A stretch of 64,000 nt of DNA from a virus (taxonomy: Duplodnaviria; Caudoviricetes), in the IMG/VR virus record IMGVR_UViG_2974512403_000001, positions 15,222-79,221 of that record; one strand, 5' to 3'. A program made the position numbers and the translations under genes. The notes under the pieces are model-generated. The model saw only the letters and a list, made by a program, of their open reading frames with translations, was not told the DNA's origin and made no database searches. This document shows, in pieces, positions 306 to 63,840 of the stretch (positions are counted from its first letter, which is position 1; every line of letters starts with the position of its first letter).

Positions 306-326
306 AAAAAGGGCTTTTAGCCCTTT
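306..326 (-). terminator. intrinsic terminator after recJ-like gene
   Basis: AAAGGGC/GCCCTTT stem followed by T-run. Confidence 0.7.
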
Positions 327-2070
327 AAAAAATAAAATTGTCTGCTGTCTGCTTGATTTTAACTTCGTCACTCTTAACGCATTTGTCAATTATTAACTGA
401 GGAACGGGGCTTTTACCCCAATAGTTGAATCCTGATGAACAAACGAAGCTAATTGTCTTATCTGAAAATCCGCTCTTAATGTACTTTTTGAGTTCATCAG
501 TAACATTAAAATCATCAATTGTAATTCCAGACATCTTAATTGACATCCAATTATTAACTAGTTTTATATCTTTTTTAGGGACTTTTAACCCAATCACAGC
601 AATTTTTATTTCATCCCTTGCCCCTCTAAAAATATTTGCTGATCTGTAAATTTCTGAAATGTCATCAATAGTTGGGAGTTCATTTACAAATCCAGCATCG
701 ACATAATATTCATAGTCTGGTACAGATTTTGAATATTCTTCAATTTTATAAGCAACATCATTCCACTTATCATCATATAACGCGACACCAAATGCTTGCT
801 CATGTCCCGCAGCAAACTTAACACCGTCCAGCTTTTTGAGTAAAGACATTCCATTAATGTTTCCTGGGAAGCGTCCACTTCCTTGAAGGGTGTCGCCCTT
901 TTCTTTCAATACTAAAGTTGGTTTCTTGGTGTTTCCAAGCATTTTATTAGCAACAAGTCCAGCGATCCCCTTATCGTATTTCTCTGGTAAAATGGCAATA
1001 TTATACTGACATTCCCCATTTGACAGCATTTTGATTTCCTTTAAGGCTTTTTTGACTAGTCGATCTTGTCTACTTTTTACTTTTTGAAGCATGTCAGCGG
1101 CTCGATCATAGACACTCATTTCAATATTGACGCTGTGCATCTTACCATCTGATAGTTTCCGACGTTTTTTCACTATTTCAGTTTTTCCAATCCCAACAAG
1201 CGCGTTAAATGTTAGTTTGCGTTCTTCATGATCACCGATTCGTGCGACCGCATTAATTTTAGGAATCAGTGAGAATTGAATATGCTTGATTGTCATTTTT
1301 TCTGGATCATCTTTAAAAAATGATTTCAACATTTTGTTACTAACATTTTCCATACCATATGAAACAATTTTCATAATCGAGGCATCATTCAAATCACTCA
1401 TATCAGCAATTTGTCCAATGGCAGTTAAGTCCGGATAGGGAATTTTATCAGATCCAATCCACAATTTAGCAACTTGTGCTGCCATTCCAGACCCAGTAAG
1501 TTCTTTGTTTAGTTCACCATCTTGATACTGGTTGCTAATTACCATATAATTAGGATAATTTTCAGTGATAAATTCTTCGTTTTCAAGAATATGATGATCA
1601 ATTACCATAACCTTTGCGCCTTTTGATTGAACCTTGTTAATTGTGACTAGATCGTTACTTGAACTATCTGGGCAAATAATCCAATCGTATTTTTCACCAT
1701 CAAAAAGTTTCTCGTTAGCCTTGATCCCATGAAGCTTAGCATTTGGAAAAACTGGAATAACATCATTATTTTTATTCATCGATTTTAGAGCTTCATAAAT
1801 AATTGATGAAGACATATAACCGTCGACATCGACATCAACTAGAATGGCAACTCTTAAATCGTTGTGATCTCGATAATACTTTGAAAACTTAATCAATTCT
1901 TTTTCAAACGGAAGATGCCATTCCTCGTCACAATAATCTCCCCAGACATTATTTTTTCGATATTCGATAGCACCTTTGACAATATTACCAATATTGTCGT
2001 TCGTTAGTTCAATGTTAAATCCGTTAATCTGGCTGTTTATATTTTCTACATCACTTTGTGCAATTCTCAT
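325..2070 (-). CDS. recJ: RecJ-like DHH-family ssDNA exonuclease
   Basis: DVDVDG, PDSS, IDHH motifs and C-terminal GSGR...GGH-like (AAGH) DHHA1 motif. Confidence 0.85.
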   Translation of the reverse strand: MRIAQSDVENINSQINGFNIELTNDNIGNIVKGAIEYRKNNVWGDYCDEEWHLPFEKELIKFSKYYRDHNDLRVAILVDVDVDGYMSSSIIYEALKSMNKNNDVIPVFPNAKLHGIKANEKLFDGEKYDWIICPDSSSNDLVTINKVQSKGAKVMVIDHHILENEEFITENYPNYMVISNQYQDGELNKELTGSGMAAQVAKLWIGSDKIPYPDLTAIGQIADMSDLNDASIMKIVSYGMENVSNKMLKSFFKDDPEKMTIKHIQFSLIPKINAVARIGDHEERKLTFNALVGIGKTEIVKKRRKLSDGKMHSVNIEMSVYDRAADMLQKVKSRQDRLVKKALKEIKMLSNGECQYNIAILPEKYDKGIAGLVANKMLGNTKKPTLVLKEKGDTLQGSGRFPGNINGMSLLKKLDGVKFAAGHEQAFGVALYDDKWNDVAYKIEEYSKSVPDYEYYVDAGFVNELPTIDDISEIYRSANIFRGARDEIKIAVIGLKVPKKDIKLVNNWMSIKMSGITIDDFNVTDELKKYIKSGFSDKTISFVCSSGFNYWGKSPVPQLIIDKCVKSDEVKIKQTADNFIF

Positions 2071-2072
2071 TA

Positions 2073-3101
2073 TTATGACATAACCTTTCTTGATCTCATT
2101 AATTCGTAAAACGGTTCTGATCCTCTATCAGTGGGGCTGTCTTTGTAACCAAGTAACCCATCACAATCATCAAATAGAACTGATACATTAAACCTTAGTA
2201 GCATTCTCTTGAACATTTTGACAATCATTTCTGCTCTTGTTTTTCTCGACTGCTCATCATTGTAATCCTTATCTAGCCCAACAATTATTTCATTGATTCC
2301 AAGTTTTGATAATTCGTTTATTTGCCAACTTGAAATACTAGATCCAGATAAGGCAACTCCATTGCCATTTCCATTCATGATTGTATCTAATTGCATGACT
2401 GATTTTTCAGACTCAAAAATAATAACTTTTTCAGCTTTTAAAATATTCCTTTTATTTTGAAACAATCCGTACAGGTTTAGGCTGGTTGGGTATGATAACA
2501 CTTTTCCCTTATACCTAACGGGGCGATACTTGCCAAAATTATCTATCTCGTACTGGTCTAATGATCTTCCACGGACACCAATCAACCTTCCATTAATATC
2601 AAGTTGTGGAATTATTATTTTGTTTTCAGATATTGAATACCTTATTCCGAATTTTTTCTGTGTTTCAGCACTAATTCCTTCATCAATCCACCCACCGTAC
2701 GCATAGGGGTGATACCTTTCTAGTAGTTTAGCACTTATCTCAGAAACATCTTTGTATTCATTTTCGTTCTTTTTTAGTGCTACTGCTGGATTGTAAAGAT
2801 CATGTGAAAAGAACCCCTCAATTTTTCTACCACCGATAATCGTGTTTAGTTCACTCATGGCTTGTGGGTATTCGATTTCTCTATAACGCATTATAAAACC
2901 GACTAAGTTCATTGACCCACAATTTGAGTAGCAATACATTGAAACTGATAGGTTTTCATCAAAATACGCATATAGCTTATATCCGCCATCCCCATCGTGA
3001 TGGTGGCAATAAGACCTTATTTGATAATACTTCCCTCTATCTTGATAATCCAAATTATAATATTTAATTACCTTATCAAGATCGCTTTTCTTATAGTCCA
3101 T
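2073..3101 (-). CDS. DNA primase (Zn-binding + Toprim)
   Basis: CHHH...CYSNC Zn motif, FESEKS and GLDKD Toprim motifs; adjacent to helicase. Confidence 0.85.
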   Translation of the reverse strand: MDYKKSDLDKVIKYYNLDYQDRGKYYQIRSYCHHHDGDGGYKLYAYFDENLSVSMYCYSNCGSMNLVGFIMRYREIEYPQAMSELNTIIGGRKIEGFFSHDLYNPAVALKKNENEYKDVSEISAKLLERYHPYAYGGWIDEGISAETQKKFGIRYSISENKIIIPQLDINGRLIGVRGRSLDQYEIDNFGKYRPVRYKGKVLSYPTSLNLYGLFQNKRNILKAEKVIIFESEKSVMQLDTIMNGNGNGVALSGSSISSWQINELSKLGINEIIVGLDKDYNDEQSRKTRAEMIVKMFKRMLLRFNVSVLFDDCDGLLGYKDSPTDRGSEPFYELMRSRKVMS

Positions 3102-3108
3102 ATTTCAC

Positions 3109-4713
3109 CTAGAACACAAGCTGTTCTTTAACCCCGTAGTTTCCATCATTATCAATCTTAATGGTGGTTCTTGGAAGATCAATATAATTGTATTGATAAT
3201 CTGTGGCGAATAGTGAATATTCGTGAAGTGTCCCAAGATCAACCACCGACCAGATAACAATGTTTTTCTTTCCAAGTCTATTTTTATAGCAAAAATTTCC
3301 AATATTTGGTTTTAAATGATAAGGATTAACAGCATCATCACTAATCAATGGCTCTAAAGACTTTAAATCCCTAGGGGTAACGTCTGCTGAGATCATGCCA
3401 AAATCAATTTTGTCAGCAATACTCTTAGAATCACGGAGAGCTTGCGATGTTCTTGACATCTCATAATTGCTATCATCATATGTTGGCGTAATTTGAGTCG
3501 CAGACATAATATAGATGTCAAGTTCTTTCGCCTTGTTGCGTAATCTATCTGTAAAACTTAACAGAATACGATCATCACGGGTGTCTCTACCACCATAAAG
3601 TTCAGATCCAGATCTTAGTAGCTTAGGTGCTGCCCAAATGTAGTCAAAATCAACGTATTTAACGTCGTAATTGAAAACATACTCATCAATAGTCGACATG
3701 ACATCATCTATATCGAAGTCCTGAATCTCCTTGAAATGAAGTTTGGTCTCCTGTAAGACTTTTACACCGTGATTAATAATATTTTTTACGTCGTTTGTGT
3801 AATGTCCACGCTTAATAACTTCTGGATTAATTCTTGTAACTGCGCATATTAGAATTAATTGAATTTCTTTTTTTGAAAGTTCAGTAGAAATAAATAATGA
3901 TGGCTGGGGATTTTCGTTTGTAACCCATTTTCCAGTGTTTTTATTAAAAATTTGAGTAGCAGAAACATTCACCAAATCCATCAGGCCCAGTCGTGTTTTA
4001 CCACCACCAGCTTTCATAGATCTTAGAAATAGCTTTCCAAGTTGCATCCCAGAAGTGATCGTATTCATGAGACCATCATGAAACCCATAACCAAAATCAG
4101 GTGACTGATTAATGTTTTCAAGCATTTCTTCAATATCGTCACCAGCGTCAAATGATTCTGAATTTTGTTCCCAATCAGAAACTTCATTCTTAATGTCGCT
4201 GATTGTTTTTGAAAAATGATTGACAATATCTTGTTCAGTCATTGCATTCAATTGATCTTGTTGTTTGGAAAGTTTATCTGGTTCTTCCGTGTATACATCA
4301 TATACACTGCTAATATCAATGCCGGAAGACAATAATTTTCTTAAAACTGTCATTTTTTTAATATAATGATAGTTTAATTTAAACATGCCTTCATTTGCAG
4401 ATTCTTTTGCAGACTGGACATATTCAATTCCTTTATATCCAGTAAAGATAGAATAATATTTTTCAAATTGTTTTAAATACGTGTCAATGTCAATGGCGGT
4501 TATTTCTTCTAGCTTATCCGATTCGTTAACAATATTGTTGATAGCAAAAAAAATAATTCTATGAACGCTATTCGAAAAATCTTCTTTAGTCAGGCACACA
4601 CTATCTGATAGTAGCTTAGCTGGATTGTTCATTAATACCCCAATAACACCAAAAATTTGGCTTTGGGGTGTAAGAGCCTTTAACTCATTTTTATTCAAGT
4701 AGATCATCCTCAC
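3109..4713 (-). CDS. dnaB: DnaB-like replicative helicase
   Basis: Walker A AGGGKT, DFDYI, SATQ, DSKSIADKID motifs. Confidence 0.85.
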   Translation of the reverse strand: MRMIYLNKNELKALTPQSQIFGVIGVLMNNPAKLLSDSVCLTKEDFSNSVHRIIFFAINNIVNESDKLEEITAIDIDTYLKQFEKYYSIFTGYKGIEYVQSAKESANEGMFKLNYHYIKKMTVLRKLLSSGIDISSVYDVYTEEPDKLSKQQDQLNAMTEQDIVNHFSKTISDIKNEVSDWEQNSESFDAGDDIEEMLENINQSPDFGYGFHDGLMNTITSGMQLGKLFLRSMKAGGGKTRLGLMDLVNVSATQIFNKNTGKWVTNENPQPSLFISTELSKKEIQLILICAVTRINPEVIKRGHYTNDVKNIINHGVKVLQETKLHFKEIQDFDIDDVMSTIDEYVFNYDVKYVDFDYIWAAPKLLRSGSELYGGRDTRDDRILLSFTDRLRNKAKELDIYIMSATQITPTYDDSNYEMSRTSQALRDSKSIADKIDFGMISADVTPRDLKSLEPLISDDAVNPYHLKPNIGNFCYKNRLGKKNIVIWSVVDLGTLHEYSLFATDYQYNYIDLPRTTIKIDNDGNYGVKEQLVF

Positions 4714-5164
4714 TTATCTTAGTGATTTGTTTCCTCTCTCTTTTAGGAGGCTTGATAACTACAATAGACTTATTGTAGTTATAGGAATTATCGTTTGTCT
4801 CTCTCACATAATTATTATGATCAGCATAATAATATTTAATTAATCCAATTCCGTAGGTTGAATCAAATTTAACGTTTTTGTGCGTCTTGATCCAATCAAA
4901 CGTATGCAACATTCCCTCATAAGTCATTCCTAGCGAGATATATTTTTTAATCTGGGCATACACCATCGACGGTAAAACAACTTGTCCATATTCCTCTCGT
5001 AGGCCGTGAGTGAATGCTTTTTTACATTGGTCATTATGAATAATTATGTTTAAGCACTCTCGACAGTAATTTTTATTCTTATATTGAGTTAGTTCATCTT
5101 TTTCATGCTTTATACCTTGCTCATAGCAATTAGGCCCGTAACACTTTAATAGCATATTTAACAC
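4691..5164 (-). CDS. Zn-finger hypothetical protein, possible helicase accessory
   Basis: CYGPNC...CREC; directly upstream of helicase. Confidence 0.5.
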   Translation of the reverse strand: MLNMLLKCYGPNCYEQGIKHEKDELTQYKNKNYCRECLNIIIHNDQCKKAFTHGLREEYGQVVLPSMVYAQIKKYISLGMTYEGMLHTFDWIKTHKNVKFDSTYGIGLIKYYYADHNNYVRETNDNSYNYNKSIVVIKPPKRERKQITKISEDDLLE

Positions 5165-5220
5165 CTCTTAATCTATTATACTAAAAAAGGCGTAGCTTAT
5201 CAAGCCAACGCCGACCATTT

Positions 5221-5415
5221 TTACTTCAATTTGCTCGTAATCATGTTTAAAACCCAACCGATACAGAATACTGTGGTTCCGATTTTCCAGAGTAAAAGCC
5301 ATGACCACGGAGTTCCCCACAAACACATAACCAGCATCCCAATTAACCCATAAACAAACACTAAGGCAACATCAGCAAGTAACGATGCTAAAGTATTAAC
5401 AATAATATCCCTCAT
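5221..5415 (-). CDS. small two-TM membrane protein
   Basis: two hydrophobic segments, RBS GGAGG. Confidence 0.6.
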   Translation of the reverse strand: MRDIIVNTLASLLADVALVFVYGLIGMLVMCLWGTPWSWLLLWKIGTTVFCIGWVLNMITSKLK

Positions 5416-5418
5416 TTT

Positions 5419-6117
5419 CTAGTCCTCCCACGATCGCATTTCTACGATGTTTGCAAATTCTTGTTCGGTTAGGTAGCCAAGATCAACTAGTTTTGTTTCA
5501 ATCAAGTCTAGTACGGCACTACGATCTCCCATATCAGACTCGAAATCAAAGTCATCTCTGTTAATCCTAATAATTGGAGCTTCACTATATGAGTCTGCCC
5601 AATTTTTAAACCCCCAGTTAATTGACTTATAGTATTCAACTAGATTGGGGTCGGCTGTTTCCATGTCGCGTCCACGCCCGATAATATCTTCGATTTCCTT
5701 TTCTGGGCTAATATCCAAGAAAACATATAGATCTGGATAATGTCCTTTAGGAGTAGCACTAATAGAATCAAGCATGTGTCGCAATAGCTTTAAATAGAGA
5801 TTATATTCCTGATCTGTTGTTTCTCCTCTATCATGGATCACTTTATATACGATAGAGTCAGCTACTAGATTTGAATCCATAACAGCTTTTTCATCAACAA
5901 CAGCATCTCTTAGCTGCGAAAACCTCTCATCAAGCCAGGCAATTTGTAGCGGGAACCCAAATTTTTTACGTGTTTCTTTTCCACCTGAGTAGTAATCCTT
6001 TAAAATCGGAATGGCGTATGGGTCTTCCAGATACTCTTTTGCCCCAAGATCTTCACTCAAAATCTTTACTAAAGTGCTTTTGCCACTCCCAAAAGCCCCC
6101 ATAACATTAACCAGCAT
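5419..6117 (-). CDS. deoxynucleoside kinase (dNK family)
   Basis: GAFGSGKST P-loop, YLEDP, FPLQIAWLDERF, GRDME motifs. Confidence 0.85.
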   Translation of the reverse strand: MLVNVMGAFGSGKSTLVKILSEDLGAKEYLEDPYAIPILKDYYSGGKETRKKFGFPLQIAWLDERFSQLRDAVVDEKAVMDSNLVADSIVYKVIHDRGETTDQEYNLYLKLLRHMLDSISATPKGHYPDLYVFLDISPEKEIEDIIGRGRDMETADPNLVEYYKSINWGFKNWADSYSEAPIIRINRDDFDFESDMGDRSAVLDLIETKLVDLGYLTEQEFANIVEMRSWED

Positions 6118-6320
6118 TACTTTACCCCCTTTGTTTGTGAATATCTAAGCATTGCAATTTCAAAATCATCATATCGTTCGATAGGAATACTAATAGGCTC
6201 ATCAGTACCATCATCAACAATTACTGAAAATGTGTCTCCCCCACCACTATAGTAGAAATAAATTACATGAGATAACATAATTACAACTTTGGAGCCATCT
6301 TTGGTTTTATAACGAAACAT
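6117..6320 (-). CDS. hypothetical protein
   Basis: ORF with GGAGG RBS, coupled to next gene. Confidence 0.6.
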   Translation of the reverse strand: MFRYKTKDGSKVVIMLSHVIYFYYSGGGDTFSVIVDDGTDEPISIPIERYDDFEIAMLRYSQTKGVK

Positions 6321-6332
6321 ATATATCTCCTC

Positions 6333-6611
6333 CTAAATTAAATATGGAATAATTAAAATATAAGCATGAATGCCAGTGTAATAGGCCGTATCATTTACCC
6401 CACTTCGTAAATCAAAATCACTTGCATCCAGATGGCGTGCTCCATATACATGAGCCAAATTATTGTATCGCCTTGCAATATTAAGCTTGACAACCTCTAA
6501 ATTTTTGTCAACACATTGGTACTGTATTCCGTTAGATGAAATAGTTCCGATATATACCGTTTCGAGCTCAAATCCGTCAATTGGCTTGTAAGCATCGCTC
6601 CATTCACCCAT
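6333..6611 (-). CDS. hypothetical protein
   Basis: likely start ATG 6611 after GGAGG; upstream ORF extension is AT-repeat intergenic DNA. Confidence 0.6.
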   Translation of the reverse strand: MGEWSDAYKPIDGFELETVYIGTISSNGIQYQCVDKNLEVVKLNIARRYNNLAHVYGARHLDASDFDLRSGVNDTAYYTGIHAYILIIPYLI

Positions 6612-6753
6612 ATTATCAACCCTCCATCCGATATTCATATATCTGTATACATATACAATATATAGGTATATATATGAATAATAATACAATATATAACCAT
6701 TTTATTCATTTAAAGTGTCATAAAATTCGTATTTTATTAAATTTGTGTCATTC

Positions 6754-7155
6754 TTAATGATTGGGGGCATTCAATCCGTCAATTAATTTTTCAAGTTGTC
6801 TTGATAATTCTGCGGTATTGATTTCTACCAACATGGCTAGTTGCTTGTTAAAATTTTCTTGCTTTTTCTTTTGAGATTCTTTCAGCAAATCGTCAGTCGA
6901 CACAAAACGATCGCCGTTATCAACAATACCACCCCTTAAACTATTTTCCCAATTCCTCCAACGTTTTGAATATTCGATAATCTTTCCAATTTCGACGTTA
7001 ACATTATCTTTCTTACCAGCACGATCAGCATATTTAAAAATATTAAATTTGTATGCTCCTCGCATTTCGTCTTCTGTGAGAATTTTTTCCATATGGTCCA
7101 ACAAATCTTTCCCACCATGTTGATAGTGTTCTGGGATAATCTTTTCTTCTGCCAT
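6754..7155 (-). CDS. DUF3310-like phage protein
   Basis: PEHYQHGG...FNIFKYADRAGKK pattern. Confidence 0.7.
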   Translation of the reverse strand: MAEEKIIPEHYQHGGKDLLDHMEKILTEDEMRGAYKFNIFKYADRAGKKDNVNVEIGKIIEYSKRWRNWENSLRGGIVDNGDRFVSTDDLLKESQKKKQENFNKQLAMLVEINTAELSRQLEKLIDGLNAPNH

Positions 7156-7166
7156 TTCAGCTCCTC

Positions 7167-7451
7167 CTATTTAAATTCAATTACGGTGTCTGATAAACCA
7201 ATTTCATCACTGTCTTCTCCAAATACCAATGAAACTGGTTTCCCACTCCCATAGACAGCTGCAACACCACTAGCATTGTACTTTTCTTTCAGCTTGTTAG
7301 CAACAATATCCATAATGAATTCACTTCTGTTAATTGTTATTACATTCCGATTTTTATCATAATCGAACAAATCTAATAACTCTAGTAGCATATCTTGTTG
7401 AGAACTGATTTTATCATACTCGTCTTCGTTCATGATAATCTTTTTATCCAT
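7167..7451 (-). CDS. hypothetical protein
   Basis: likely start ATG 7451 after GAGG. Confidence 0.6.
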   Translation of the reverse strand: MDKKIIMNEDEYDKISSQQDMLLELLDLFDYDKNRNVITINRSEFIMDIVANKLKEKYNASGVAAVYGSGKPVSLVFGEDSDEIGLSDTVIEFK

Positions 7452-7734
7452 TTTTAATTGTCTCCTCTGCATATGATTGTAATTTATGATCAAAATAAGA
7501 CATAATCTCTTTGCCAATGTCTTTATTAGTTGCAATAATTGGCTCATCGTCAGTACTAAACCACATGATTAAGCAATTCGTGTCTCCAAATACAAACGGA
7601 TAACTAATCTTAGTGACACTTTTGCCATCCTGATCATAACGTTCAAGTTCTACATTTTGTTCATTGTAAGACCCATCAAAGAAATGATCTAAAAAGTCAT
7701 ACATATTTTCAACTGTTAATTTCTTTTTTCTCAT
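7444..7734 (-). CDS. hypothetical protein
   Basis: first ORF behind leftward promoter, GGAG RBS. Confidence 0.6.
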   Translation of the reverse strand: MRKKKLTVENMYDFLDHFFDGSYNEQNVELERYDQDGKSVTKISYPFVFGDTNCLIMWFSTDDEPIIATNKDIGKEIMSYFDHKLQSYAEETIKNG

Positions 7735-7771
7735 ATTATATTCTCCATCTTTATTTTATTAACTAAATACA

Positions 7772-7800
7772 ATTATAGCATTAAAACATTGAATTGTAAA
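7772..7800 (-). promoter_or_regulatory. leftward sigma70-type promoter of replication block
   Basis: TTTACA-17-TATAAT with TG extension. Confidence 0.75.
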
Positions 7801-7812
7801 CAAAACTTTATG

Positions 7813-7841
7813 TTGACTTAAAAATAATTCCGTGTTAATAT
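7813..7841 (+). promoter_or_regulatory. rightward promoter for large ncRNA
   Basis: TTGACT-17-TAATAT with TG extension, back-to-back with leftward promoter. Confidence 0.6.
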
Positions 7842-7849
7842 TGTATTTA

Positions 7850-8650
7850 CAAATAAATGAAAACTTAATAAGTATCATGGATCAAGCGGAAAACCTACCG
7901 CGAAACAAATGGGTATGTGCTGGCGCGGCTTTAGGGAAATTGAAGTAACGTCAGTCGAGTCAAGTAGCAAAAACTCCAAAAGCTACTAATCACTAAGATG
8001 AACGCTAAACCGACAAAATATCGGCAGGCGGAAGATGGAGTGGAAAGGGCCAAGGTTCGCGCGGCTTGTACTAAGTTAGACACTGGCAGATATGGTTTCT
8101 GTTATTTTCTATAAATAGGCACCGTGACTTAACTCAATCCGAAAGGCAGACTAACAGATATGTGAAAACTAAGCTTCTGGGACGGACGGCATAGAAGCAG
8201 AAAGTTAGTTGATTGGTTGAAATACCAATCAGAGACAATTTCTCTTGTATACGTGACGCGCTCAGTGTTGCGAAACTGATTACAAGTCTTTGCTCCTTAG
8301 TCAGTGTATCAGTCTGCACTTTTTCCATTGGCTAAGGCAAAGACTTGTTCCGCTCAACAACTCGTATTACAAAACTGGTAGCCGATACTTTCGTTACTTT
8401 AAATCCTAACTAAACAAAACAAATAACAACCAAACTTGATATTAATTGGATTTGGTTTTTGGCTTTTAGTTTTGGTGACACGTATGTGTGTCACGGTTGG
8501 TGCTAGACTAATAACGCTTATTAGCTACTAGCGCGACGTTGCCCGAAATAGGGTGAGAAACTGGCCCTTCGGCAAGAACACTACTTAGTTGATCCCAGCT
8601 AAGCCGAGCTGTTTTCTAAAGCGAGACCCCTAGCACTATGCTAATTAGAA
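7850..8650 (+). ncRNA. large structured ncRNA, GOLLD/ROOL-class candidate
   Basis: no credible ORF; closing helices 7917-7923/8630-8636 and 7928-7934/8616-8622; 11-bp long-range helix 7940-7950/8392-8402; perfect 12-bp stem 8282-8293/8337-8348; many further hairpins. Family identity not verified; boundaries approximate. Confidence 0.7.
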
Positions 8651-10302: not shown

Positions 10303-10717
10303 CAAAGTTGAATGTGATGGTTATACGTTTGATAGCACGAAAGAATATAACTTCTACAAAAAATTTATTAAAGATTGTGGATTTAAATTTAAAGTTCATG
10401 AAAAATATACGCTAATAGACAAAATTAAACTTGGTGACAAAATTTCGATCAGGAGTTTAACATACAAGCCTGATTTTATTATCTTCAACAAGGATAATAG
10501 CATCAAACATGTTTATGACGTTAAGAACGGATTTACACCCTATGCAATTGATAGGGGGGCTGGTATATCTTTTAAATTGTTTGCACAGAGCATAGGAACA
10601 CCAGTAGAAGTTGTAGTTGTTAGAACTCATGATTTTAAAACTAAAATATTAGGGACGACCAAAAAGTATGAAATTAAAATTAGAAAGAGTGTCGATTATG
10701 ATTGGAGCGAATGTTGA
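10280..10717 (+). CDS. DUF1064-like PD-(D/E)XK nuclease
   Basis: YGNKVECDGYTFDSTKE and YKPDF...DVK motifs; likely start ATG 10280. Confidence 0.75.
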   Translation: MGLQHYGNKVECDGYTFDSTKEYNFYKKFIKDCGFKFKVHEKYTLIDKIKLGDKISIRSLTYKPDFIIFNKDNSIKHVYDVKNGFTPYAIDRGAGISFKLFAQSIGTPVEVVVVRTHDFKTKILGTTKKYEIKIRKSVDYDWSEC

Positions 10718-11034
10718 TGTATCGTAAATTTGAGGGGGAATTAGACGGGGTAACACTTGATGGAATTAAAGAAATCTTTTTTGATAAATATTATAACATC
10801 GAGCATGGTGCAAAGCAAAGGGTAGAAGATGCAAAATCATTTATTAATAATGAATGCGGAAAATTCTTTGAATTGTATTTTGAGAATAATTTTATTTCTG
10901 TAACACCTTCTGAACAAGTAATGTCCGAAAATGATAGTGTAGCTCATTTTTTAGAAATATTAACTACATATGTTATTACTGGTGAAGACGATGACTTACC
11001 ATATAATAAAGATTTATTTTTTATTGGTAACTAG
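10702..11034 (+). CDS. hypothetical protein
   Basis: ORF in operon context. Confidence 0.6.
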   Translation: MERMLMYRKFEGELDGVTLDGIKEIFFDKYYNIEHGAKQRVEDAKSFINNECGKFFELYFENNFISVTPSEQVMSENDSVAHFLEILTTYVITGEDDDLPYNKDLFFIGN

Positions 11035-17309: not shown

Positions 17310-17795
17310 ATGACCCCTATTCTTGATGCTTGCTGTGGTGGAAAAATGTTTTGGTTTGACAAAGACAATCAAAACGTTACATTTATGGATCGTCGTGAGG
17401 AAGAAAACATCATTGGTAAATATCAAACAAAACAAGGAGAAAAAGACAGGGTGTTAAGGGTTGCACCAGATATAGTTGGCGATTTTAGAAATATGCCATT
17501 CAGCAATGAATCATTTTACATGGTCGTGTTTGATCCACCACATTTACGGTATGCCGGTAAATCATCATGGCTGGCCAAGAAGTATGGCACGTTAGACGAA
17601 ACTTGGCCATTTGATCTACGGAAGGGGTTTACCGAGTGCATGCGGGTATTAAAGCCGCATGGCACATTAATATTTAAATGGAATGAAGAACAAATTAAAT
17701 TGAGTGAGCTGTTAGATGCTATTGGACAACAACCGTTGTTTGGAGACAAGCGTGGCAAGACACACTGGTTGGTATTTATGAAAGGAATTTTATAA
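17310..17795 (+). CDS. small SAM-dependent methyltransferase (amino-MTase-like)
   Basis: ILDACCGG SAM motif, FDPPH catalytic-type motif, RVLKPHG. Confidence 0.8.
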   Translation: MTPILDACCGGKMFWFDKDNQNVTFMDRREEENIIGKYQTKQGEKDRVLRVAPDIVGDFRNMPFSNESFYMVVFDPPHLRYAGKSSWLAKKYGTLDETWPFDLRKGFTECMRVLKPHGTLIFKWNEEQIKLSELLDAIGQQPLFGDKRGKTHWLVFMKGIL

Positions 17796-19915: not shown

Positions 19916-20104
19916 ATGCAAAAAGACAACCTAAGAACTAAATTAGAAGAAGTAATTGATAGATATGGGTTAACATATGAGAGTTACGATGAAGAAGGAG
20001 ATCTAGCGCCGTCAAATGTTGAATATGACTTGATTGATGATATTGTTGATCTGGTTTCAGATGAAGTTTCAGGATTTATTTTAGAACAGAACAAAATTAT
20101 TTAA
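19916..20104 (+). CDS. small acidic hypothetical protein
   Basis: ORF after MTase. Confidence 0.55.
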   Translation: MQKDNLRTKLEEVIDRYGLTYESYDEEGDLAPSNVEYDLIDDIVDLVSDEVSGFILEQNKII

Positions 20105-49738: not shown

Positions 49739-49846
49739 ATAAATCTCCTCGTCTTTCATATTAAATTATGTATACCACCAAAAGGTGGTAGTTGCTATTC
49801 AGCAACGATGGTTGCGCCATCATAACTTGGAGTTATCGACACCACT

Positions 49847-52026: not shown

Positions 52027-52060
52027 TGCACCTCCTATGTACCCGTTAAGGGTTTACCCC

Positions 52061-52510
52061 TTAAGCGGTTGGCGTTGCTTTAACTGCTGCCGACTTAGCT
52101 GATTCCCCAGCACCGTTCTTAACCGTTGCTTGGACAGTATATTCAGTACCAGCAGTTAATCCAGTAATTGACCCAGTTAATGAAGTCTTTAAATCTACCG
52201 TTCCATTATTGGTGCCGTCAGTCCAATAAGCAACTCGGTCGGTGATTGCACTGCCTGTATTTTCGCCATCAACTAAAGTAACATCAATTTTGCCAGAACC
52301 AGCGGTTAGCGTTGCGGTTGGTGCTGATGGTACTTTATCTAAAGTTGTAAAATCTGAAATTGTTGTCTTCTCAGATGCACCGGCATATGCAATTTGATAG
52401 CCAGAAACCTTTGTGTTCGGCTTTAACCCAGTAATTGTAACTGGAGATGGCTGATTGTCAATTTTCTTTGCGCCAGCATTGTCGTAAACATCAAAATTTG
52501 CCAAAAACAT
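52061..52510 (-). CDS. tandem fibronectin type III-like protein (virion decoration candidate)
   Basis: ITGLKPNTK and ITGLTAGTEYTVQ repeats; start may be TTG 52504. Confidence 0.75.
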   Translation of the reverse strand: MFLANFDVYDNAGAKKIDNQPSPVTITGLKPNTKVSGYQIAYAGASEKTTISDFTTLDKVPSAPTATLTAGSGKIDVTLVDGENTGSAITDRVAYWTDGTNNGTVDLKTSLTGSITGLTAGTEYTVQATVKNGAGESAKSAAVKATPTA

Positions 52511-52629
52511 AACCTCCTATCGTGAAACCATATGTATGCCCCCGCAATGGGGGTAATCGGATTTACTACTTGGCAACAACCGTTGCACCATCGGCAGTCG
52601 GTGTTACACTAGTCACCGTTGGTGCCGGA

Positions 52630-56384: not shown

Positions 56385-58094
56385 TTAGAGCAAGGTGATA
56401 TTGGCCTGTCCACCGATGATATTTGAGAATTCATCAATCTCCCATAGTGACATTGCGTCGACTACGGCTGCGACCATATCAATTTTGCCATTTGATTTTT
56501 TCTTATTTAAGAAATAAGATAGGTTACTGTCTGTAACCATTCTTGCGTTCATAAAGTTCTCTTTAAGCATATCATTCTTGTCATATGCAAAATTTCCATC
56601 TTCGATAGACTCACGAAGCAATTTCGTCCCTGGATATAACCCTTTTGCATTTTGTGGAACCTCAATGCCATCATATCCGGCAGCTAAAAATTTAGCCACC
56701 GTAGATCGTGCGTTCCACTTATCATACCCAAAGCCTTTAATATTGACCCCGTATTTTTCCTCTAACTTAAAGAAGAAGTCTTCAACAAAGCCATAATCAA
56801 TCGTTGTATCTCCAGACGAATAACCCCAACCTTCGTTTTCGCTGTGCTGGTAGTCCCATCCTTCGACCTTTGATTTCTCATTAATTCTCCCGGCTGGGAA
56901 GAACGACCATGCTTTTGCTACATATTTAGCATGACTTTCATCAAATGTAACCATCGCAAGGCCAAAATTATCACGAGATTCGGCGAAATCAAGGCCCACA
57001 AATACATCTTTACCATACCAATCATAACCTTGAACTAATTCTGAATTGTCAAGATCGTTCTCTGTGACAAACTGTTCAGCTTGTGCACCGTCAACGAAGA
57101 TATTCATGAATTTTGTCAAAAAGTTTTGACGTTTATCAGCATAAGTAATGGCATCTTCACGATCTTTAAAAAGCCTTTTCTTAACCGATGGAAATTCTTG
57201 TGAAAGAGGATTGACTTTTATCAGCTCTTTGTCACTAGTCGCCCATTTTTTGGGTTCATCTGGACGATATATCAGAGCAAAATAGGTCGGATCATATAAT
57301 TCTCCATCAACAATCTTGTCCTTGGCACGCTCTATCTCAGCAGTCATAGGATTATGTAATGAATCATACGCAGTTGAAATAATAATGCCGAGCGGGTTTG
57401 AAACAAGGTTTTGCCCAGATTGCATGGCTTGTATAGGATAACCATTTGGCAAAGCTCCAACTTCGTCAGCTAAAAATGCTACTGGTTCACGAGCATCAAG
57501 CCTATTGTTCGAGTTAGCTAGTGGCTTATAAGTATTCTTTGTTACTAAGCAAGTTATTTCCTTATTGGTAACTTTGAAGAACCTTGCTAGTTCTGGAGAA
57601 CCATCAATCAAAGAGTCAACCTGTGTCTTCAATTGAGACGACAATTCTAAGTCTGGAGCGACTGAATAGAACTTTGAATATCTAGGCTCTAAAATTAACA
57701 ATAAGATAAAAACTATAGAACTTATGAAAGTTTTTCCATTCTTGCGTGGGATAAGCATAGTAGCTGTGTTATATCTACGCAAACTATGGTCATCTTTATG
57801 TCTCCAGCAGAAAATATTTACAAAAAAGAACCACTGAAACCCAGCAAGGGCATCATAAGCACTTTCTCCTCGTCTAGGTCCAGTTGCCATAGTGATTAAT
57901 TTAAGTAACTTAGACACCTTATCAAGCGCCCTTATGTCAAAATAGTAGTCGCCTTTTCCGTTTAAACTATCATTAACTTCTCTAATGAAGCGATCGGTGA
58001 CAATTTTTACGTCATTGTTGACGATAATATCGCCATTTTTGATTCCAAGCGCATATTTGTAAGCTGGATGATTAAATATTTCTTTATCGTTCAA
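56385..58094 (-). CDS. terL: terminase large subunit
   Basis: IPRKNGKT Walker A, ADEVG Walker B, GLDFAES, GYDKWN, KIDMVAA; likely TTG 58094 after GAGGTG. Confidence 0.93.
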   Translation of the reverse strand: MNDKEIFNHPAYKYALGIKNGDIIVNNDVKIVTDRFIREVNDSLNGKGDYYFDIRALDKVSKLLKLITMATGPRRGESAYDALAGFQWFFFVNIFCWRHKDDHSLRRYNTATMLIPRKNGKTFISSIVFILLLILEPRYSKFYSVAPDLELSSQLKTQVDSLIDGSPELARFFKVTNKEITCLVTKNTYKPLANSNNRLDAREPVAFLADEVGALPNGYPIQAMQSGQNLVSNPLGIIISTAYDSLHNPMTAEIERAKDKIVDGELYDPTYFALIYRPDEPKKWATSDKELIKVNPLSQEFPSVKKRLFKDREDAITYADKRQNFLTKFMNIFVDGAQAEQFVTENDLDNSELVQGYDWYGKDVFVGLDFAESRDNFGLAMVTFDESHAKYVAKAWSFFPAGRINEKSKVEGWDYQHSENEGWGYSSGDTTIDYGFVEDFFFKLEEKYGVNIKGFGYDKWNARSTVAKFLAAGYDGIEVPQNAKGLYPGTKLLRESIEDGNFAYDKNDMLKENFMNARMVTDSNLSYFLNKKKSNGKIDMVAAVVDAMSLWEIDEFSNIIGGQANITLL

Positions 58095-58221
58095 AATAAT
58101 CACCTCAATATATGTAAAGCCCAACTGTGGCATGGGCCAGCCATTTTATTAACGTTGCTGGTTATAAAAGAACATGGAAAGAAAACACCCAGCCGTTTTA
58201 CTTTATTGGAATTAAGCTACA

Positions 58222-58813: not shown

Positions 58814-58962
58814 CCACCCAGGTGGGTATCGAACCCACGCACAACGAATGCCTTTGCTCAAGCACGCTGTTAGATCTACTATTTTGGTAAAGGCTGATTA
58901 AGACTATGCAGCGACATACCTTTAACCACTCGGAAGATCCGTGTGCTCTCCATAACTGGGTA
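58814..58962 (-). ncRNA. 149-nt tRNA-like RNA (acceptor + T-arm, branched domain replacing D/anticodon arms)
   Basis: TACCCAG/CTGGGTG acceptor, GTGGG-TTCGATA-CCCAC T-arm, internal helices GCACACG/CGTTGTGC, GATCT/AGATC, TGGTTAAAGGT/GCCTTTACCA. Confidence 0.65.
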
Positions 58963-59143
58963 AATATGTATGCCCGACACACTGGCGCCTGTAGCACCGT
59001 GTTATCAGGGCTTTATCTATCTCAACCGAGGCTAGACCAGATAGATTTGGTTTTTCTACTAGCAAAAGAATGCTTGCCTCCAAAGGCTACTCCATTATGG
59101 AACTTTTACTTTCGGGTGCGCGCTTCTCGGAACTTAAACTATG

Positions 59144-59653
59144 TTATTTGTTATAATTTAATTCGCCAGACAAGAAATCGTTAATGGTTGTTTGCATTTC
59201 TTGCATGAACCCTACCACACTAGCAATTGTGTAGTTTTCAGGAATAGGATCGCCAGCACCGACATATGACAGAAGAATTTGTACTTCCATTCTAAACCGA
59301 TTGAGAATACCTTTGATTGGTTCTAAGAAGTCATGCTCATAACTTAAGATGGAAAAATTTGGAGCTTCATGATTGATTTGTTGGTAAACAATATGAGATA
59401 AGCGATTGTTATATTCATCATCATCAAAATTAATGTCATCGCTAGAGTCATCGCTCTTGTTTGCGTAACTGGCAACCGCTCTCTGAGTCATCCAATCAAG
59501 ATAATAGTAAAGCTTCTTTAGCAAGTTACATGCACTGTTCGCTTGATCATCCGATCGAGCACTGACTTTAATCACATCTAGGTTCAAATCACGTTCTCTT
59601 TGCATCATATGTTCAAAGTTTTCAAGCTGATAAACATTTCTTGACTTTGTCAT
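59144..59653 (-). CDS. hypothetical protein
   Basis: 169-aa ORF, AGGT RBS. Confidence 0.65.
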   Translation of the reverse strand: MTKSRNVYQLENFEHMMQRERDLNLDVIKVSARSDDQANSACNLLKKLYYYLDWMTQRAVASYANKSDDSSDDINFDDDEYNNRLSHIVYQQINHEAPNFSILSYEHDFLEPIKGILNRFRMEVQILLSYVGAGDPIPENYTIASVVGFMQEMQTTINDFLSGELNYNK

Positions 59654-59789
59654 TTTGCATTACCTACCTTTTTATTTCTTAAAATGGGTACAACTCCCAA
59701 AATAAGCATATTACTATGTATCATAAGTGGGTTTTACTACCCCACGTGTATTATATCTAAAATATGTACTGCTGACGTTATGTCAGCTT

Positions 59790-60838: not shown

Positions 60839-60999
60839 GCATCTCACTCCCCTTTAATATGTATTACCAATGCAAAGACTGAAAGAAATCATTGGTATGC
60901 GCTTCCTTGGCAGATTTTTTGAACAATAATGTCCGTCTCTATAACTTTGACGAGTTATGTACGAGAAGATAAAATCTTCTCAGGAGGAATAATGAATGA

Positions 61000-61275: not shown

Positions 61276-61479
61276 AAATAGTATTCTCCTTTATATAAGT
61301 GCTAAAGCACTAACTGAGAGTAACTCGCTAACGCTCGAACTCTCAGTCTCCTGTCACACGATTAATTAAATGTTATCATGTGGTCGCCAAATGCGACATC
61401 GGGACACCCCTAACGGGACCTCATCACAGCAAGCTGTGCTGATTCCCTTCCCCCTAGCTCCCTACATATATGTCAAAAT

Positions 61480-61530
61480 ATGGTCGAAATATGTACTTTT
61501 TTTTACGTATTTTGTACATATTTCGACCAT
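61480..61530. repeat. perfect 17-bp inverted repeat in late/early divergence (candidate cos-associated or operator site)
   Basis: ATGGTCGAAATATGTAC (61480-61496) / GTACATATTTCGACCAT (61514-61530). Confidence 0.8.
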
Positions 61531-61627
61531 CAATAAAAAATTATTATATTACATTTATATTACAAAAGCAAACATTGATTTATAAGCATTATTTGTATTA
61601 ATCGTTTATTATGATAATTTTTTATCA

Positions 61628-61656
61628 TTGACAATATCGTGATAATGAATTATTAT
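61628..61656 (+). promoter_or_regulatory. rightward sigma70-type promoter
   Basis: TTGACA-17-TATTAT. Confidence 0.65.
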
Positions 61657-61683
61657 ATATACATAAAGAAAGAAGGAATAAAA

Positions 61684-62307
61684 TTGGGAAAAGAAACATC
61701 CAAAAGTGATTTTGACGAAAATCAAGTTGTAGAAGGATTTTTAAATGGAGGCATGTTGCAATATGATGCGGGTGTAATTGAACATCTTGGGACAAACGAA
61801 GAAATAATTAGATATGGAATGCTTGCACCCTCATCACCAGAGGCACAAAAGCTCTCGTATATCTTATATGGAATTATGAATGAAAAAGATCTTTCTCAAA
61901 GTGAGAGCGATTATCTTGATAGTATTGACAGCAGATTTATTGGACATATAAAGAAGTCCGATCTATCAAATAGAGAGATTGTCTGCTTATTCTTGAACAC
62001 TTACTGGGATTGGTCAAAACTTGAATGGACAAATGATAGAACGACATCTGTCGTTATTAAGGATTTGTTCAAGGATTATTCAAATTTCTGTGCAAAGAAC
62101 AGGTTCGGAATTCATAACAGAAGAATGAAATATGATAATTTTAAGCTATATTTGTCAAAATATGGAAATGTTAAAAGATACCGAAAAAACAGTGGTGGAA
62201 AAATCACAAATGTACTAGTAATATCAAATCTTCCAGCTTATAAAGAATCATTAACAGAAACTCCAGACTTTGATCTATCTAAGCACACAGAATTAAAACA
62301 AGCATAG
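61684..62307 (+). CDS. hypothetical protein, possible C-terminal winged-helix DNA-binding domain
   Basis: likely TTG 61684; KDLFKDYSNFC...FKLYLSKYG resembles primase C-terminal winged helix (weak). Confidence 0.55.
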   Translation: MGKETSKSDFDENQVVEGFLNGGMLQYDAGVIEHLGTNEEIIRYGMLAPSSPEAQKLSYILYGIMNEKDLSQSESDYLDSIDSRFIGHIKKSDLSNREIVCLFLNTYWDWSKLEWTNDRTTSVVIKDLFKDYSNFCAKNRFGIHNRRMKYDNFKLYLSKYGNVKRYRKNSGGKITNVLVISNLPAYKESLTETPDFDLSKHTELKQA

Positions 62308-62356
62308 ACAAAACGTCAATTAGTGTTATAATATAGAATATTAGGAGGTAATAAAT

Positions 62357-62527
62357 ATGTTTAATCAAGGGGCTTTTCATTTCTTTGTTATGGTAATCAT
62401 CTCACTTATCATTATGGCAATTATTGCTGTATTTATAATGGTTTGTGCAGTGTTACCGCATGTGTTAGCAATTGTATCTGTAACGCTTGGATCTATTTGT
62501 TACGCTTGTGGTAAACTATTTAAATAG
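62357..62527 (+). CDS. 56-aa hydrophobic membrane protein
   Basis: AGGAGG RBS; below ORF-track cutoff. Confidence 0.65.
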   Translation: MFNQGAFHFFVMVIISLIIMAIIAVFIMVCAVLPHVLAIVSVTLGSICYACGKLFK

Positions 62528-62538
62528 GAGGAAGCAAA

Positions 62539-62892
62539 ATGATTAATAGTGTGAGACTTTGGAGCGAATATTATAAAGAATATGTCGACTGGTACGATGG
62601 GGTTATGGTTGATCGTAAGGGTAAAATGTATTACAACGACGGAGTTGCTAGTGATGGAGACATCGGAATTGTTTATGAATGGTGTACAGGGATCAAAGAT
62701 ATTAATGATAAATATATCTTCACTGGCGATATTATCAAGACTAAAGCCGGACGTATTCAGATTGTTAAGCAGGGCATATTATCATCAGATGAAGACAACA
62801 TTATTAGCGGATTTTATGCAGAAGATACAAAAAGTGGTGATCCATATACGTTTAGCTCCCACGATGAAGTAATTGGTAATGTGCACAATTAA
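62539..62892 (+). CDS. YopX-family protein
   Basis: EWCTGIKDINDKYIFTGDII...EVIGNVH. Confidence 0.8.
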   Translation: MINSVRLWSEYYKEYVDWYDGVMVDRKGKMYYNDGVASDGDIGIVYEWCTGIKDINDKYIFTGDIIKTKAGRIQIVKQGILSSDEDNIISGFYAEDTKSGDPYTFSSHDEVIGNVHN

Positions 62893-62917
62893 TAAAAAAT
62901 ACTGGAGGTAAACGATA

Positions 62918-63346
62918 ATGATTAAGTTTAGAGGGGTTCCATTAGATGATTATAGTCATGATGCTAATGTCGACTTTGATGGAACATTTATTTATGGAAA
63001 TTATGAAAAAGTAGGTGACGATGTATTAATTTCTAGTGGAAAATTTGATTTAGAAGGAGTATTTGTTCCAGATTTATTTGCAAAAGTAGATCCTAAGACA
63101 GTGGGACAGTTTACTGGTCTGAAAGATATTAATGGCAAGGAAATTTATGAAGGCGACATTGTTCGTATATTAAGTATCAATGTGATAACTGATGTTAAGT
63201 ATATGAGAGATGGTTATACTCCAGAATTTGAAATAGACAGGCAGAAAGTGTTTGATGATGAAAATGTTTTAGGAGAAGCGGCGTTTGAAGGCGATATTGA
63301 AGTTATTGGTAACGTTCATGATAACGCAGAATTATTGGGGGAATAA
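62918..63346 (+). CDS. YopX-family protein
   Basis: MIKFRG...TVGQFTGLKDINGKEIYEGDIV...EVIGNVHDN. Confidence 0.88.
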   Translation: MIKFRGVPLDDYSHDANVDFDGTFIYGNYEKVGDDVLISSGKFDLEGVFVPDLFAKVDPKTVGQFTGLKDINGKEIYEGDIVRILSINVITDVKYMRDGYTPEFEIDRQKVFDDENVLGEAAFEGDIEVIGNVHDNAELLGE

Positions 63347-63348
63347 TA

Positions 63349-63597
63349 ATGAGCGAGAGCAAAAATCAAATTTGTAGTTTTTGTAATAAAAATAGTTCGA
63401 TTGTGTCCAAAGAGGACGATGAGATTTGGTATCTTGACCCGAATACTGCATATGGAAAATCCTTTAGAACTCATAATCACGAGAATGTCCAAGTGGATAT
63501 TAATGATTCAAAATATCCTGACGCACGACCGGGTGACAGCACTAGCGCTGGGTTTTGGTTTGATTATTGCCCAAAGTGTGGGCGGAAACTAATTTAG
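63349..63597 (+). CDS. small Zn-finger hypothetical protein
   Basis: CSFC...YCPKCGRKL. Confidence 0.7.
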   Translation: MSESKNQICSFCNKNSSIVSKEDDEIWYLDPNTAYGKSFRTHNHENVQVDINDSKYPDARPGDSTSAGFWFDYCPKCGRKLI

Positions 63598-63606
63598 GAG
63601 ATAATA

Positions 63607-63840
63607 ATGACAATTAATTTAAAAGTTGGAAACGTATTTCATATTGAAGATCCAGAAAACCACGTTAGAATCAATAATAAGGATTACATGGTTGTTAAAG
63701 ATGCGACAGGATGGACTAAAAGATTCTTTGTAGTAGACCTAGCTGGATCACGGGTCTTAGAAAGCTTTAAATCATTGAATGACATCAACAAGTTTCTAAA
63801 AGACGCTTGGGATAAATATGATGTTGTTGTAGTGAATTAA
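63607..63840 (+). CDS. hypothetical protein
   Basis: AGGAG RBS. Confidence 0.6.
   Translation: MTINLKVGNVFHIEDPENHVRINNKDYMVVKDATGWTKRFFVVDLAGSRVLESFKSLNDINKFLKDAWDKYDVVVVN

Follow-up and report, generated by a model that had tools for sequence, protein, structure and literature searches.

Strand-Specific Avoidance of TACATA in Phage Coding Sequence and Its Retention Behind Intergenic Hairpins in a mazF-Carrying Genome

The Phage Genome and Its Gene Model

The window, as the term is used here, is a stretch of 64,000 nucleotides (bases 15222–79221) of a single 79,221-bp virus contig (IMG/VR record IMGVR_UViG_2974512403_000001). Its genes almost entirely lack the hexamer TACATA (UACAUA in RNA) on the sense strand, a set of its intergenic regions carries the same hexamer directly behind a hairpin (hairpin–TACATA elements), and a gene for a PemK/MazF-family endoribonuclease (mazF; 20173–20538, + strand) is also present. 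The DNA of the tape-measure gene is 92% identical to that of phage Lenus, 89% to that of SA-C12 and ~76% to those of ATCC 8014-B2, P1, P2, and Satyr, and on the basis of these matches the source is assigned to the subfamily Tybeckvirinae as a virulent siphophage of Lactiplantibacillus/Levilactobacillus. In window positions, which are used for all elements and genes unless another phage is named, the genes are arranged in strand blocks at 1–8328 (−), 8763–30436 (+), 30472–61275 (−; late and structural genes), and 61370–63840 (+). The gene model comprises 132 coding sequences (CDSs) with 71,026 coding bases across the whole 79-kb genome; CDS starts and spurious open reading frames (ORFs) on the opposite strand were curated against the RefSeq annotation of Lenus before counting.

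Depletion of TACATA on the Sense Strand of Genes

Exact matches to TACATA on both strands number 39 in the window (CDS sense, 3; CDS antisense, 18; intergenic, 18) and 54 in the whole genome (CDS sense, 3; CDS antisense, 26; intergenic sense, 20; intergenic antisense, 5). The sense copies within CDSs are located at 10965–10970 (+; frame 2 of CDS 10711–11034), 40031–40036 (−; frame 0, encoding Tyr-Ile, in the tail protein CDS 39128–41521), and 57353–57358 (−; large terminase CDS 56385–58094, found by exact search). A reading of the DNA made from its letters alone (the sequence-only reading) had reported strand-specific avoidance of this word with just two sense copies; its positions 10965 and 40031 are exact, its total of two is wrong because 57353 had been missed, and the exact count thus adds one site rather than many. 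All 16 antisense copies that it named are exact matches on the strands given, to which exact search adds 7700 and 9551. Further copies at 41542, 58111, and 61660 seem to fall within long ORFs, but the real start codons of these genes lie downstream of them. Structural shielding of the three surviving sense sites was considered and rejected, as folding places one in a paired region and leaves two largely unpaired, with no consistent protection.

The low count is not explained by codon-aware null models. With synonymous codons shuffled within genes, 14.9 ± 3.4 sense sites are expected, and three or fewer did not occur once in 1000 shuffles; a synonymous shuffle that also preserves dinucleotides predicts 10.0 ± 2.6, and three or fewer was reached in none of 200. 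Antisense copies occur as often as the same models predict (26 vs. 22–24.5). TACATA ranks 23rd of 4096 hexamers in sense-strand depletion, in agreement with the expectation that it would be among the most depleted. Ahead of it stand mainly palindromes and restriction-type words that are low on both strands (ATGCAT, GATATC, TCTAGA, CTGCAG, CTTCAG/CTGAAG, and GGATAC), along with runs of T and words resembling Shine-Dalgarno sequences. In strand asymmetry it ranks second, after one Shine-Dalgarno-like word, the complement of which is too infrequent to be assessed. The deficit is seen in each reading frame (observed 1, 1, and 1; expected 1.7, 5.0, and 8.4), for genes on both DNA strands, and in the late and non-late (early) blocks alike; it therefore tracks transcription and not a DNA strand. 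When three genera of Tybeckvirinae are pooled (this phage, Maenad, and 8014-B2, with genes of the latter two counted only if their orientation fits the annotated strand blocks), 5 sense copies are found against 38.6 expected (0.13; z = −6.2). Related phages are not statistically independent samples.

Extent of the Recognition Word and Selection on RNA

In the sense strand of all CDSs of the genome, TACATG (13 vs. 13.2 expected) and TACATT (23 vs. 28.4) are not depleted, as had been proposed for TACAT followed by any base other than A; this did not extend to TACATC, which is mildly depleted (7 vs. 15.0). A scan of all one-mismatch variants in the three pooled genera gives observed/expected ratios of 0.68–1.26 for 16 of the 18, the remaining two being TACATC (0.41) and TACGTA (0.36). 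TACGTA is a palindrome, and its deficit is probably a restriction effect. Neighboring words matched for UpA content (TATATA, TAAATA, AACATA, and TACAAA) have ratios of 0.78–1.0 in the same scan. With the exact hexamer at 0.13 and its one-base variants mostly near expectation, a recognition word of 6 nt rather than 5 nt is upheld. Selection on RNA, and not on a DNA restriction site, is likewise sustained, given that the depletion switches strand with gene orientation and that restriction-type words are low on both strands.

In vivo, EndoA/MazF of Bacillus subtilis cleaves RNAs across the transcriptome at U/ACAUA (Nucleic Acids Res 2025, PMC11780869). The MazF proteins of B. subtilis and Listeria monocytogenes act on UACAUA alone, and that of Staphylococcus aureus has weak additional activity on UACAUC and UACUUA (bioRxiv 10.64898/2026.08.06.743204). 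In its sequence profile, the depletion in CDSs mirrors this published specificity, UACAUA with a shoulder at UACAUC.

Words of restriction type form a separate class. ATGCAT, TCTAGA, CTGCAG, GCTAGC, ACCGGT, GGATAC, and CTTCAG have no copies on the CDS sense strand and are avoided on both strands; CTGAAG, the reverse complement of CTTCAG, has two sense copies. GATATC, GAATTC, TTCGAA, CAGCTG, and ATCGAT are strongly reduced in CDSs on both strands. CTGAAG/CTTCAG is nearly absent also from phages LP65 and A511 and Lactococcus phage 949.

Hairpin–TACATA Elements at Intergenic Junctions

In the 8.2 kb of intergenic DNA, 20 sense copies of TACATA are found against 5.05 expected, and the word ranks right behind Shine-Dalgarno words and a CA repeat in enrichment, above TTGACA. 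Thirteen of these 20 copies sit 0–2 nt 3′ of a hairpin (−6.7 to −21.5 kcal/mol), compared with a background of 7% at intergenic positions (binomial P = 6e-11) and with 1 of 26 antisense copies. Twelve of the 13, together with the copy at 59715 (6-nt gap), lie between late genes, and the other precedes mazF. Exact TACATA follows 10 of the 12 non-tRNA hairpins of the late block (nine within 4 nt, one after 6 nt), and a one-off variant of the word follows none of the 12; hairpins of the early region are followed by T-runs and are terminator-like. Where the next gene is close, its Shine-Dalgarno sequence starts 0–29 nt past the motif.

All late-block elements are on the minus strand. The element at the holin/recombinase junction (31732–31753; hairpin 31739–31753, 1-nt gap, ΔG −9.9) is followed, in order of position, by those at the junction of the distal tail gene (Dit) with the tail protein gene (41542–41565; 1-nt gap, ΔG −8.2; 13 nt before the Shine-Dalgarno sequence) and at the tape measure/Dit junction (43375–43404; 0-nt gap, ΔG −12.9). 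Immediately past the major tail protein gene lies 49767–49790 (0-nt gap, ΔG −10.4), and immediately past the major capsid gene lies 52531–52553 (2-nt gap, ΔG −9.0). At 52036–52068 (1-nt gap, ΔG −12.7), TACATA runs straight into GGAGG, with the start of the head–tail adaptor gene behind it. The element at 58111–58138 (1-nt gap, ΔG −8.5) ends 17 nt before the large terminase start, and that at 58965–59011, a 40-nt branched hairpin (1-nt gap, ΔG −21.5), is upstream of a tRNA/tRNA-like region. After the small terminase gene, 59715–59787 holds a hairpin (59771–59787), 2 nt and TACATA (59763–59768), then a second hairpin (59727–59745), 6 nt and TACATA (59715–59720). At the head of the late operon, 60858–60982 contains a hairpin (60962–60982) with TACATA at 60956–60961 and a weaker, large-loop hairpin with TACATA at 60858–60863.

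On the plus strand, the element before mazF (20113–20150) consists of a hairpin or palindrome with a 9-bp stem (20118–20143), 1 nt, and TACATA (20145–20150), with the mazF start 22 nt further on. A sigma-70-like promoter (TTGACA, 17 nt, TATGCT; 20113–20141) overlaps this element, and its predicted start is within TACATA. Intergenic copies with no hairpin are mostly promoter-proximal or part of an inverted repeat. At 61628–61665 (+), a near-consensus sigma-70-like promoter (TTGACA, 17 nt, TATTAT) has TACATA (61660–61665) at its predicted start and carries no hairpin. The divergent control region at 61463–61531 has TACATA on both strands (61463, 61490, and 61515) and does not belong to the hairpin-processing class. 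It forms a perfect 17-bp inverted repeat, with TACATATTTCGACCAT or its complement in each arm, and separates the late block from the right-hand operon; it may act as an operator or as a terminator for both directions.

Metatranscriptome contigs from three runs of two studies end at 52556/52557, just 5′ of the post-capsid hairpin, and contigs from two runs of one study end at 49787–49793, just 5′ of the hairpin past the major tail gene; assembled contigs cannot show RNA ends. One contig that ends near these hairpins continues with unlike sequence, and the comparison covers metatranscriptome assemblies, the only runs in which relatives of this phage were found.

Conservation of the Elements in Relatives

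In Maenad, 8014-B2, P1, Satyr, and two metagenomic relatives, the element is present at the same junctions with unrelated stems and an invariant TACATA. After the major tail gene, four unrelated stems are found across lineages (5′ arms TACCACC, ATGCGCCTC, TACATGCCCC, and CCCCCA). The element at 31732 has an orthologous site with a different stem in Maenad and 8014-B2, orthologous sites with different stems exist also for the elements at 41542, 43375, and 52531 (post-capsid), and at the orthologous sites of the pre-adaptor element (52036) the Shine-Dalgarno sequence abutting the motif is kept in three genera. The stem before mazF is identical in 8014-B2 and similar in Maenad, with one paired change.

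Across five lineages, 45 elements with a hairpin and TACATA were collected on either strand, all with distinct hairpins; most are of the junction type with an unrelated stem and invariant word, and a few fall outside the intergenic sense class. The gap between hairpin and TACATA is 1 nt in 28 of the 45, and the flanks are unconserved except that T or A is favored as the next base. At orthologous junctions, structure is thus conserved and stems covary next to an unchanging word, a pattern that, as far as sequence comparison can tell, is that of a structured RNA element set beside a sequence-specific recognition word.

The Maenad orthologue (73487) of the 58965 element directly adjoins a tRNA gene. 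In this phage, the region 58814–58970 (−), downstream of the 58965 element, contains a canonical T-arm (58822–58838), and no tRNA was called there by ARAGORN. Hairpin–TACATA may additionally mark the 5′ ends of tRNA or tRNA-like precursors.

The Phage MazF Protein

The 121-residue product of mazF matches Pfam PF02452 over residues 10–117, that is, the whole protein (E = 6.3e-18; 65 bits vs. a cut-off of 23.1), and matches PHROG 1936, annotated as MazF-like growth inhibitor (E = 1e-37). Its best PDB matches are MazF/EndoA proteins of Bacillus and S. aureus (7BXY, 4HKE, 4MDX, and 4MZM; E from ~1e-14 to 4e-15), and it shares ~40% identity with B. subtilis MazF. It has kept the LPTH and EQ motifs. 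Arg33 and Thr56 align with Arg25 and Thr48 of B. subtilis MazF in the 4MDX alignment and are invariant in 11 phage homologues; the latter residues are said, from the 2013 work of Simanshu and colleagues, to be the catalytic Arg and Thr. MazF is present in every member of the Tybeckvirinae examined, with protein identities of 100% in Lenus and SA-C12 and 56–60% in P1, P2, Maenad, Satyr, 8014-B2, and Gut-P1. By these features the protein is a candidate UACAUA-specific enzyme.

No MazE-type antitoxin was found directly upstream of mazF, where a 62-residue ORF gives no Pfam match, and the genes upstream of mazF in Maenad and 8014-B2 are unrelated to this ORF. The 62-residue protein (19916–20104, +) lies between the methylase genes and mazF and is very acidic (pI 4.05; 17 Asp/Glu residues); it is confined to the Lenus lineage, being present in Lenus, whereas none was found in Maenad, 8014-B2, or LP65. 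Inhibition of MazF or mimicry of DNA is a conceivable role for it. Downstream of mazF, a translationally coupled gene for a 107-residue protein is conserved, with 30% identity in Maenad.

Control Phages

Gene models of the control phages came from a simple in-house caller. In LP65, a Herelleviridae myovirus of Lactiplantibacillus plantarum whose entire record lacks a PF02452 gene, sense TACATA is found once against 23.5 expected (rank 3–5 of 4096), with a normal antisense count. The mazF-less L. plantarum phage phiJL-1 has none against 5.2 (P = 0.004) and 10 antisense copies. Listeria phage A511, also mazF-less, infects a host whose MazF cuts UACAUA and has 3 against 37.1 (rank 2 of 4096). In Lactococcus phage 949, the deficit is 19 against 31.3 (0.61) and the antisense strand is low as well. 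Set against exposure to the enzyme, avoidance is strong in A511, weak in phage 949, and strong also in the mazF-less L. plantarum phages.

Because LP65, phiJL-1, and A511 deplete TACATA as well, avoidance in CDSs is not private to phages that carry mazF, and it looks like a general response to a UACAUA-cutting activity in the host cell. As mazF-less L. plantarum phages avoid the word equally, a host-side UACAUA RNase is probably also a driver. The hairpin–TACATA system, by comparison, is confined to the mazF-carrying subfamily: LP65 and A511 have at most one site each, and phiJL-1 none. The single sites (A511, 57890–57940; LP65, 25150–25215) each consist of a hairpin, 2–3 nt, TACATA, and a ribosome-binding site, and may reflect the same processing logic with a host enzyme. 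In phage 949, TACATA is often located 1–3 nt past a TATAAT box (e.g., 41246 and 43411), at the transcription start.

Model for UACAUA Avoidance and Use

The computed features, namely depletion with its strand and hexamer specificity, linkage to hairpins, conservation with changing stems, and a MazF gene, are taken here to mean that UACAUA is a cleavage site of MazF/EndoA type, which would explain its avoidance, and that the word has been retained where cleavage would be useful (probability about 0.75). That some RNase is behind the avoidance seems in all likelihood correct, and that this RNase is of the MazF family is judged very probable. The hairpin–TACATA sites are more probably than otherwise genuine mRNA processing sites, and for these sites the MazF of the phage itself is slightly favored as the main enzyme.

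According to this model, MazF-type cleavage at U^ACAUA would endanger any mRNA bearing UACAUA, and for this reason synonymous changes would have purged the word from ~71 kb of coding sequence. The Tybeckvirinae would express a MazF of their own from the early/middle block, and UACAUA would have been retained behind GC-rich hairpins at about a dozen late-gene junctions, where cuts would divide the long late transcript into separate messages. Those on the upstream side, in particular the capsid and major tail messages, would then end in a hairpin, 0–2 nt, and U, a protected 3′ end, and the downstream message would start with ACAUA and keep its ribosome-binding site intact. Because phage genes lack UACAUA, the phage MazF could degrade host messages too. 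The TACATA before mazF would be present in read-through RNA, and transcripts of the overlapping promoter would escape cleavage because their start falls inside the word. Taken as a whole, the tentative proposal is that the Tybeckvirinae may have domesticated a toxin–antitoxin RNase for processing of their own mRNA and for host shut-off, with hairpin–UACAUA as a punctuation that would define stable single-gene mRNAs.

Several points weigh against this model. Cleavage at the hairpin sites, the identity of the enzyme, and a stabilizing effect are deduced from sequence patterns, and the specificity of the phage MazF is assumed through family likeness at ~40% identity to the B. subtilis protein. 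The three surviving sense sites in CDSs are kept in Lenus too. The hairpin before mazF could be a DNA operator, since it overlaps a sigma-70-like promoter, and the depletion in LP65 and phiJL-1 makes avoidance explicable with no contribution from the phage's own enzyme. On the host side, a profile scan of genome contigs with the phage MazF alignment gave loci from Lachnospiraceae and similar bacteria and none from Lactobacillaceae, a negative that does not show a host enzyme to be absent, and a conserved MazF is reported to be absent from the genus Lactobacillus, in a main text that makes no mention of Lactiplantibacillus (bioRxiv 10.64898/2026.08.06.743204).

Among the alternatives, the one with most in its favor, although still unlikely, is that a host enzyme alone is responsible: avoidance would then be anti-defense against a host MazF-type toxin, the hairpin elements would be cut by the host or used otherwise, and the phage mazF would serve superinfection exclusion or host shut-off or be the remnant of a toxin–antitoxin module. 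It accords with the deficits in LP65 (1 vs. 23.5) and phiJL-1 (0 vs. 5.2), neither of which has a PF02452 gene, and in A511 (3 vs. 37), whose host has a characterized UACAUA-cutting MazF. It is at odds with the restriction of the hairpin–TACATA system to the mazF-carrying subfamily and with the complete identity of MazF among Lenus, SA-C12, and this phage, in which the tape-measure DNA is 89–92% identical. Nor did searches turn up a host MazF of the UACAUA type: a word-indexed protein search returned phage-like relatives only, a plasmid search (E ≤ 1e-6) had no Lactobacillus record among the matches listed, and the ESM Atlas gave generic PemK clusters. In papers, toxins of the PemK/MazF family appear as annotations only, for L. 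pentosus KCA1, for L. plantarum WCFS1, and for plasmid p256. A paper on mazF counter-selection in L. plantarum used E. coli mazF and is irrelevant to the host enzyme.

A DNA-level signal, in which hairpin–TACATA would be a late promoter, initiator, or protein-binding element kept out of genes to prevent spurious initiation, is improbable. TACATA does stand at the predicted start of the sigma-70-like promoters 20113–20141 and 61628–61656 and follows TATAAT boxes in phage 949, so that primary transcripts would begin within the motif, like MazF-cut RNAs, and some sites read CATAAT or TATAAT at a shift of 2–3 nt. A sense promoter inside a gene would nevertheless be nearly harmless, whereas the antisense copies, which would be harmful, are not depleted; the hexamer is invariant, with none of the degeneracy of a −10 box; a transcript started downstream would lose the ribosome-binding site of the adaptor gene, since in three genera the Shine-Dalgarno sequence of this gene comes directly after the motif; phages with no hairpin elements avoid TACATA too; and the annotations of relatives contain no phage RNA polymerase or sigma factor. 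That codon usage, codon-pair bias, or avoidance of UpA by itself produces the deficit, as a compositional artefact, is scarcely credible. Preservation of dinucleotides does lower the expectation from 14.9 to 10.0, and the deficit in phage 949 is mild and nearly symmetric (0.61), but 3 against 10.0 was reached in 0 of 200 dinucleotide shuffles, UpA-matched neighbors stay at 0.78–1.0, all three frames are depleted, and the intergenic sense strand trends in the opposite direction, toward enrichment.

Relation to Known Systems

The phage MazF shares family PF02452 with B. subtilis EndoA (ndoA) and with the MazF proteins of S. aureus and L. monocytogenes, and the hexamer deduced from depletion is identical to that of the EndoA/MazF orthologues, including the secondary sensitivity of UACAUC. 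Unlike the EndoA systems, this mazF is in a virulent phage, with no recognizable MazE upstream that is conserved in the subfamily, and is accompanied instead by the conserved, translationally coupled downstream gene. As in the avoidance of restriction sites by phages, a short recognition word has been purged, and this phage exhibits that form too (ATGCAT, GATATC, TCTAGA, CTGCAG, and CTGAAG/CTTCAG). Restriction avoidance acts on DNA and is strand-symmetric, whereas the loss of TACATA is confined to the transcribed strand and would act on RNA.

In phage T7, host RNase III, which is specific for double strands, cuts within intergenic hairpins of polycistronic mRNA. As at those sites, an intergenic cut at a hairpin–TACATA element would give the upstream fragment a 3′-terminal hairpin; the putative enzyme differs in that it would be single-strand- and sequence-specific, would cut just 3′ of the hairpin, and is perhaps phage-encoded. 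RegB of phage T4 is a GGAG-specific endoribonuclease with a toxin-like fold that cuts Shine-Dalgarno sequences and thereby inactivates early mRNAs. The MazF considered here resembles RegB as a phage-encoded, sequence-specific endoribonuclease related to toxin–antitoxin toxins that would act on mRNAs during infection, and differs in that its cuts would spare the ribosome-binding site and that the phage genes are cleared of its motif.

The single-stranded RNA (ssRNA) phages of E. coli under-represent ACA, with a relative frequency of 0.83, and this has been attributed to MazF (Biol Lett 2025, PMC12151602). In both cases the word of a toxin–antitoxin RNase is avoided by phages; the ACA effect is weak and concerns 3 nt in RNA genomes, whereas the effect described here concerns 6 nt, a 5- to 25-fold depletion, and the mRNAs of DNA phages. 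The temperate Bacillus phages phi3T and SPbeta are enriched in UACAU sites, according to an earlier preprint. In literature searches, no report was found of strand-specific UACAUA avoidance in DNA phages, or of hairpin–UACAUA elements combined with a phage-borne MazF. The MazF family and its hexamer are already known, and the new part would be the strand-specific avoidance in DNA phages and the pairing of hairpin–UACAUA with a phage MazF.

The role of toxin–antitoxin RNases as phage defenses is debated. The strand-specific, 5- to 25-fold loss of a single exact hexamer from several unrelated phages provides strong evidence, at the genome level, for real selection by MazF-type cleavage on DNA phages of Gram-positive bacteria, and it independently backs the strict 6-nt specificity recently reported for MazF. 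A phage that has mazF and keeps the word only behind intergenic hairpins suggests a defense nuclease turned into a processing enzyme. If this is true, strand-specific loss of UACAUA would be a genomic signature of phages that face MazF activity. In practice, sense-strand UACAUA counts could predict the sensitivity of a phage to hosts with MazF-type enzymes, and lactic acid bacteria could be equipped with the hairpin–UACAUA module as a tool for RNA processing.

Additional Features of the Window

One metatranscriptome contig fuses 59138 to 59713 and omits 574 nt, with the right breakpoint 2 nt from TACATA; some natural relatives therefore lack the gene for a 169-residue protein at 59144–59653. 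Upstream of mazF, the C5 cytosine DNA methyltransferase gene (17795–19915, +) encodes 706 residues, compared with 394 in the Lenus orthologue, and has matches to Hint/intein-splicing and LAGLIDADG domains between the N-terminal part of the methylase and residues 385–703, which suggests that an intein with a homing endonuclease has been inserted in this methylase.

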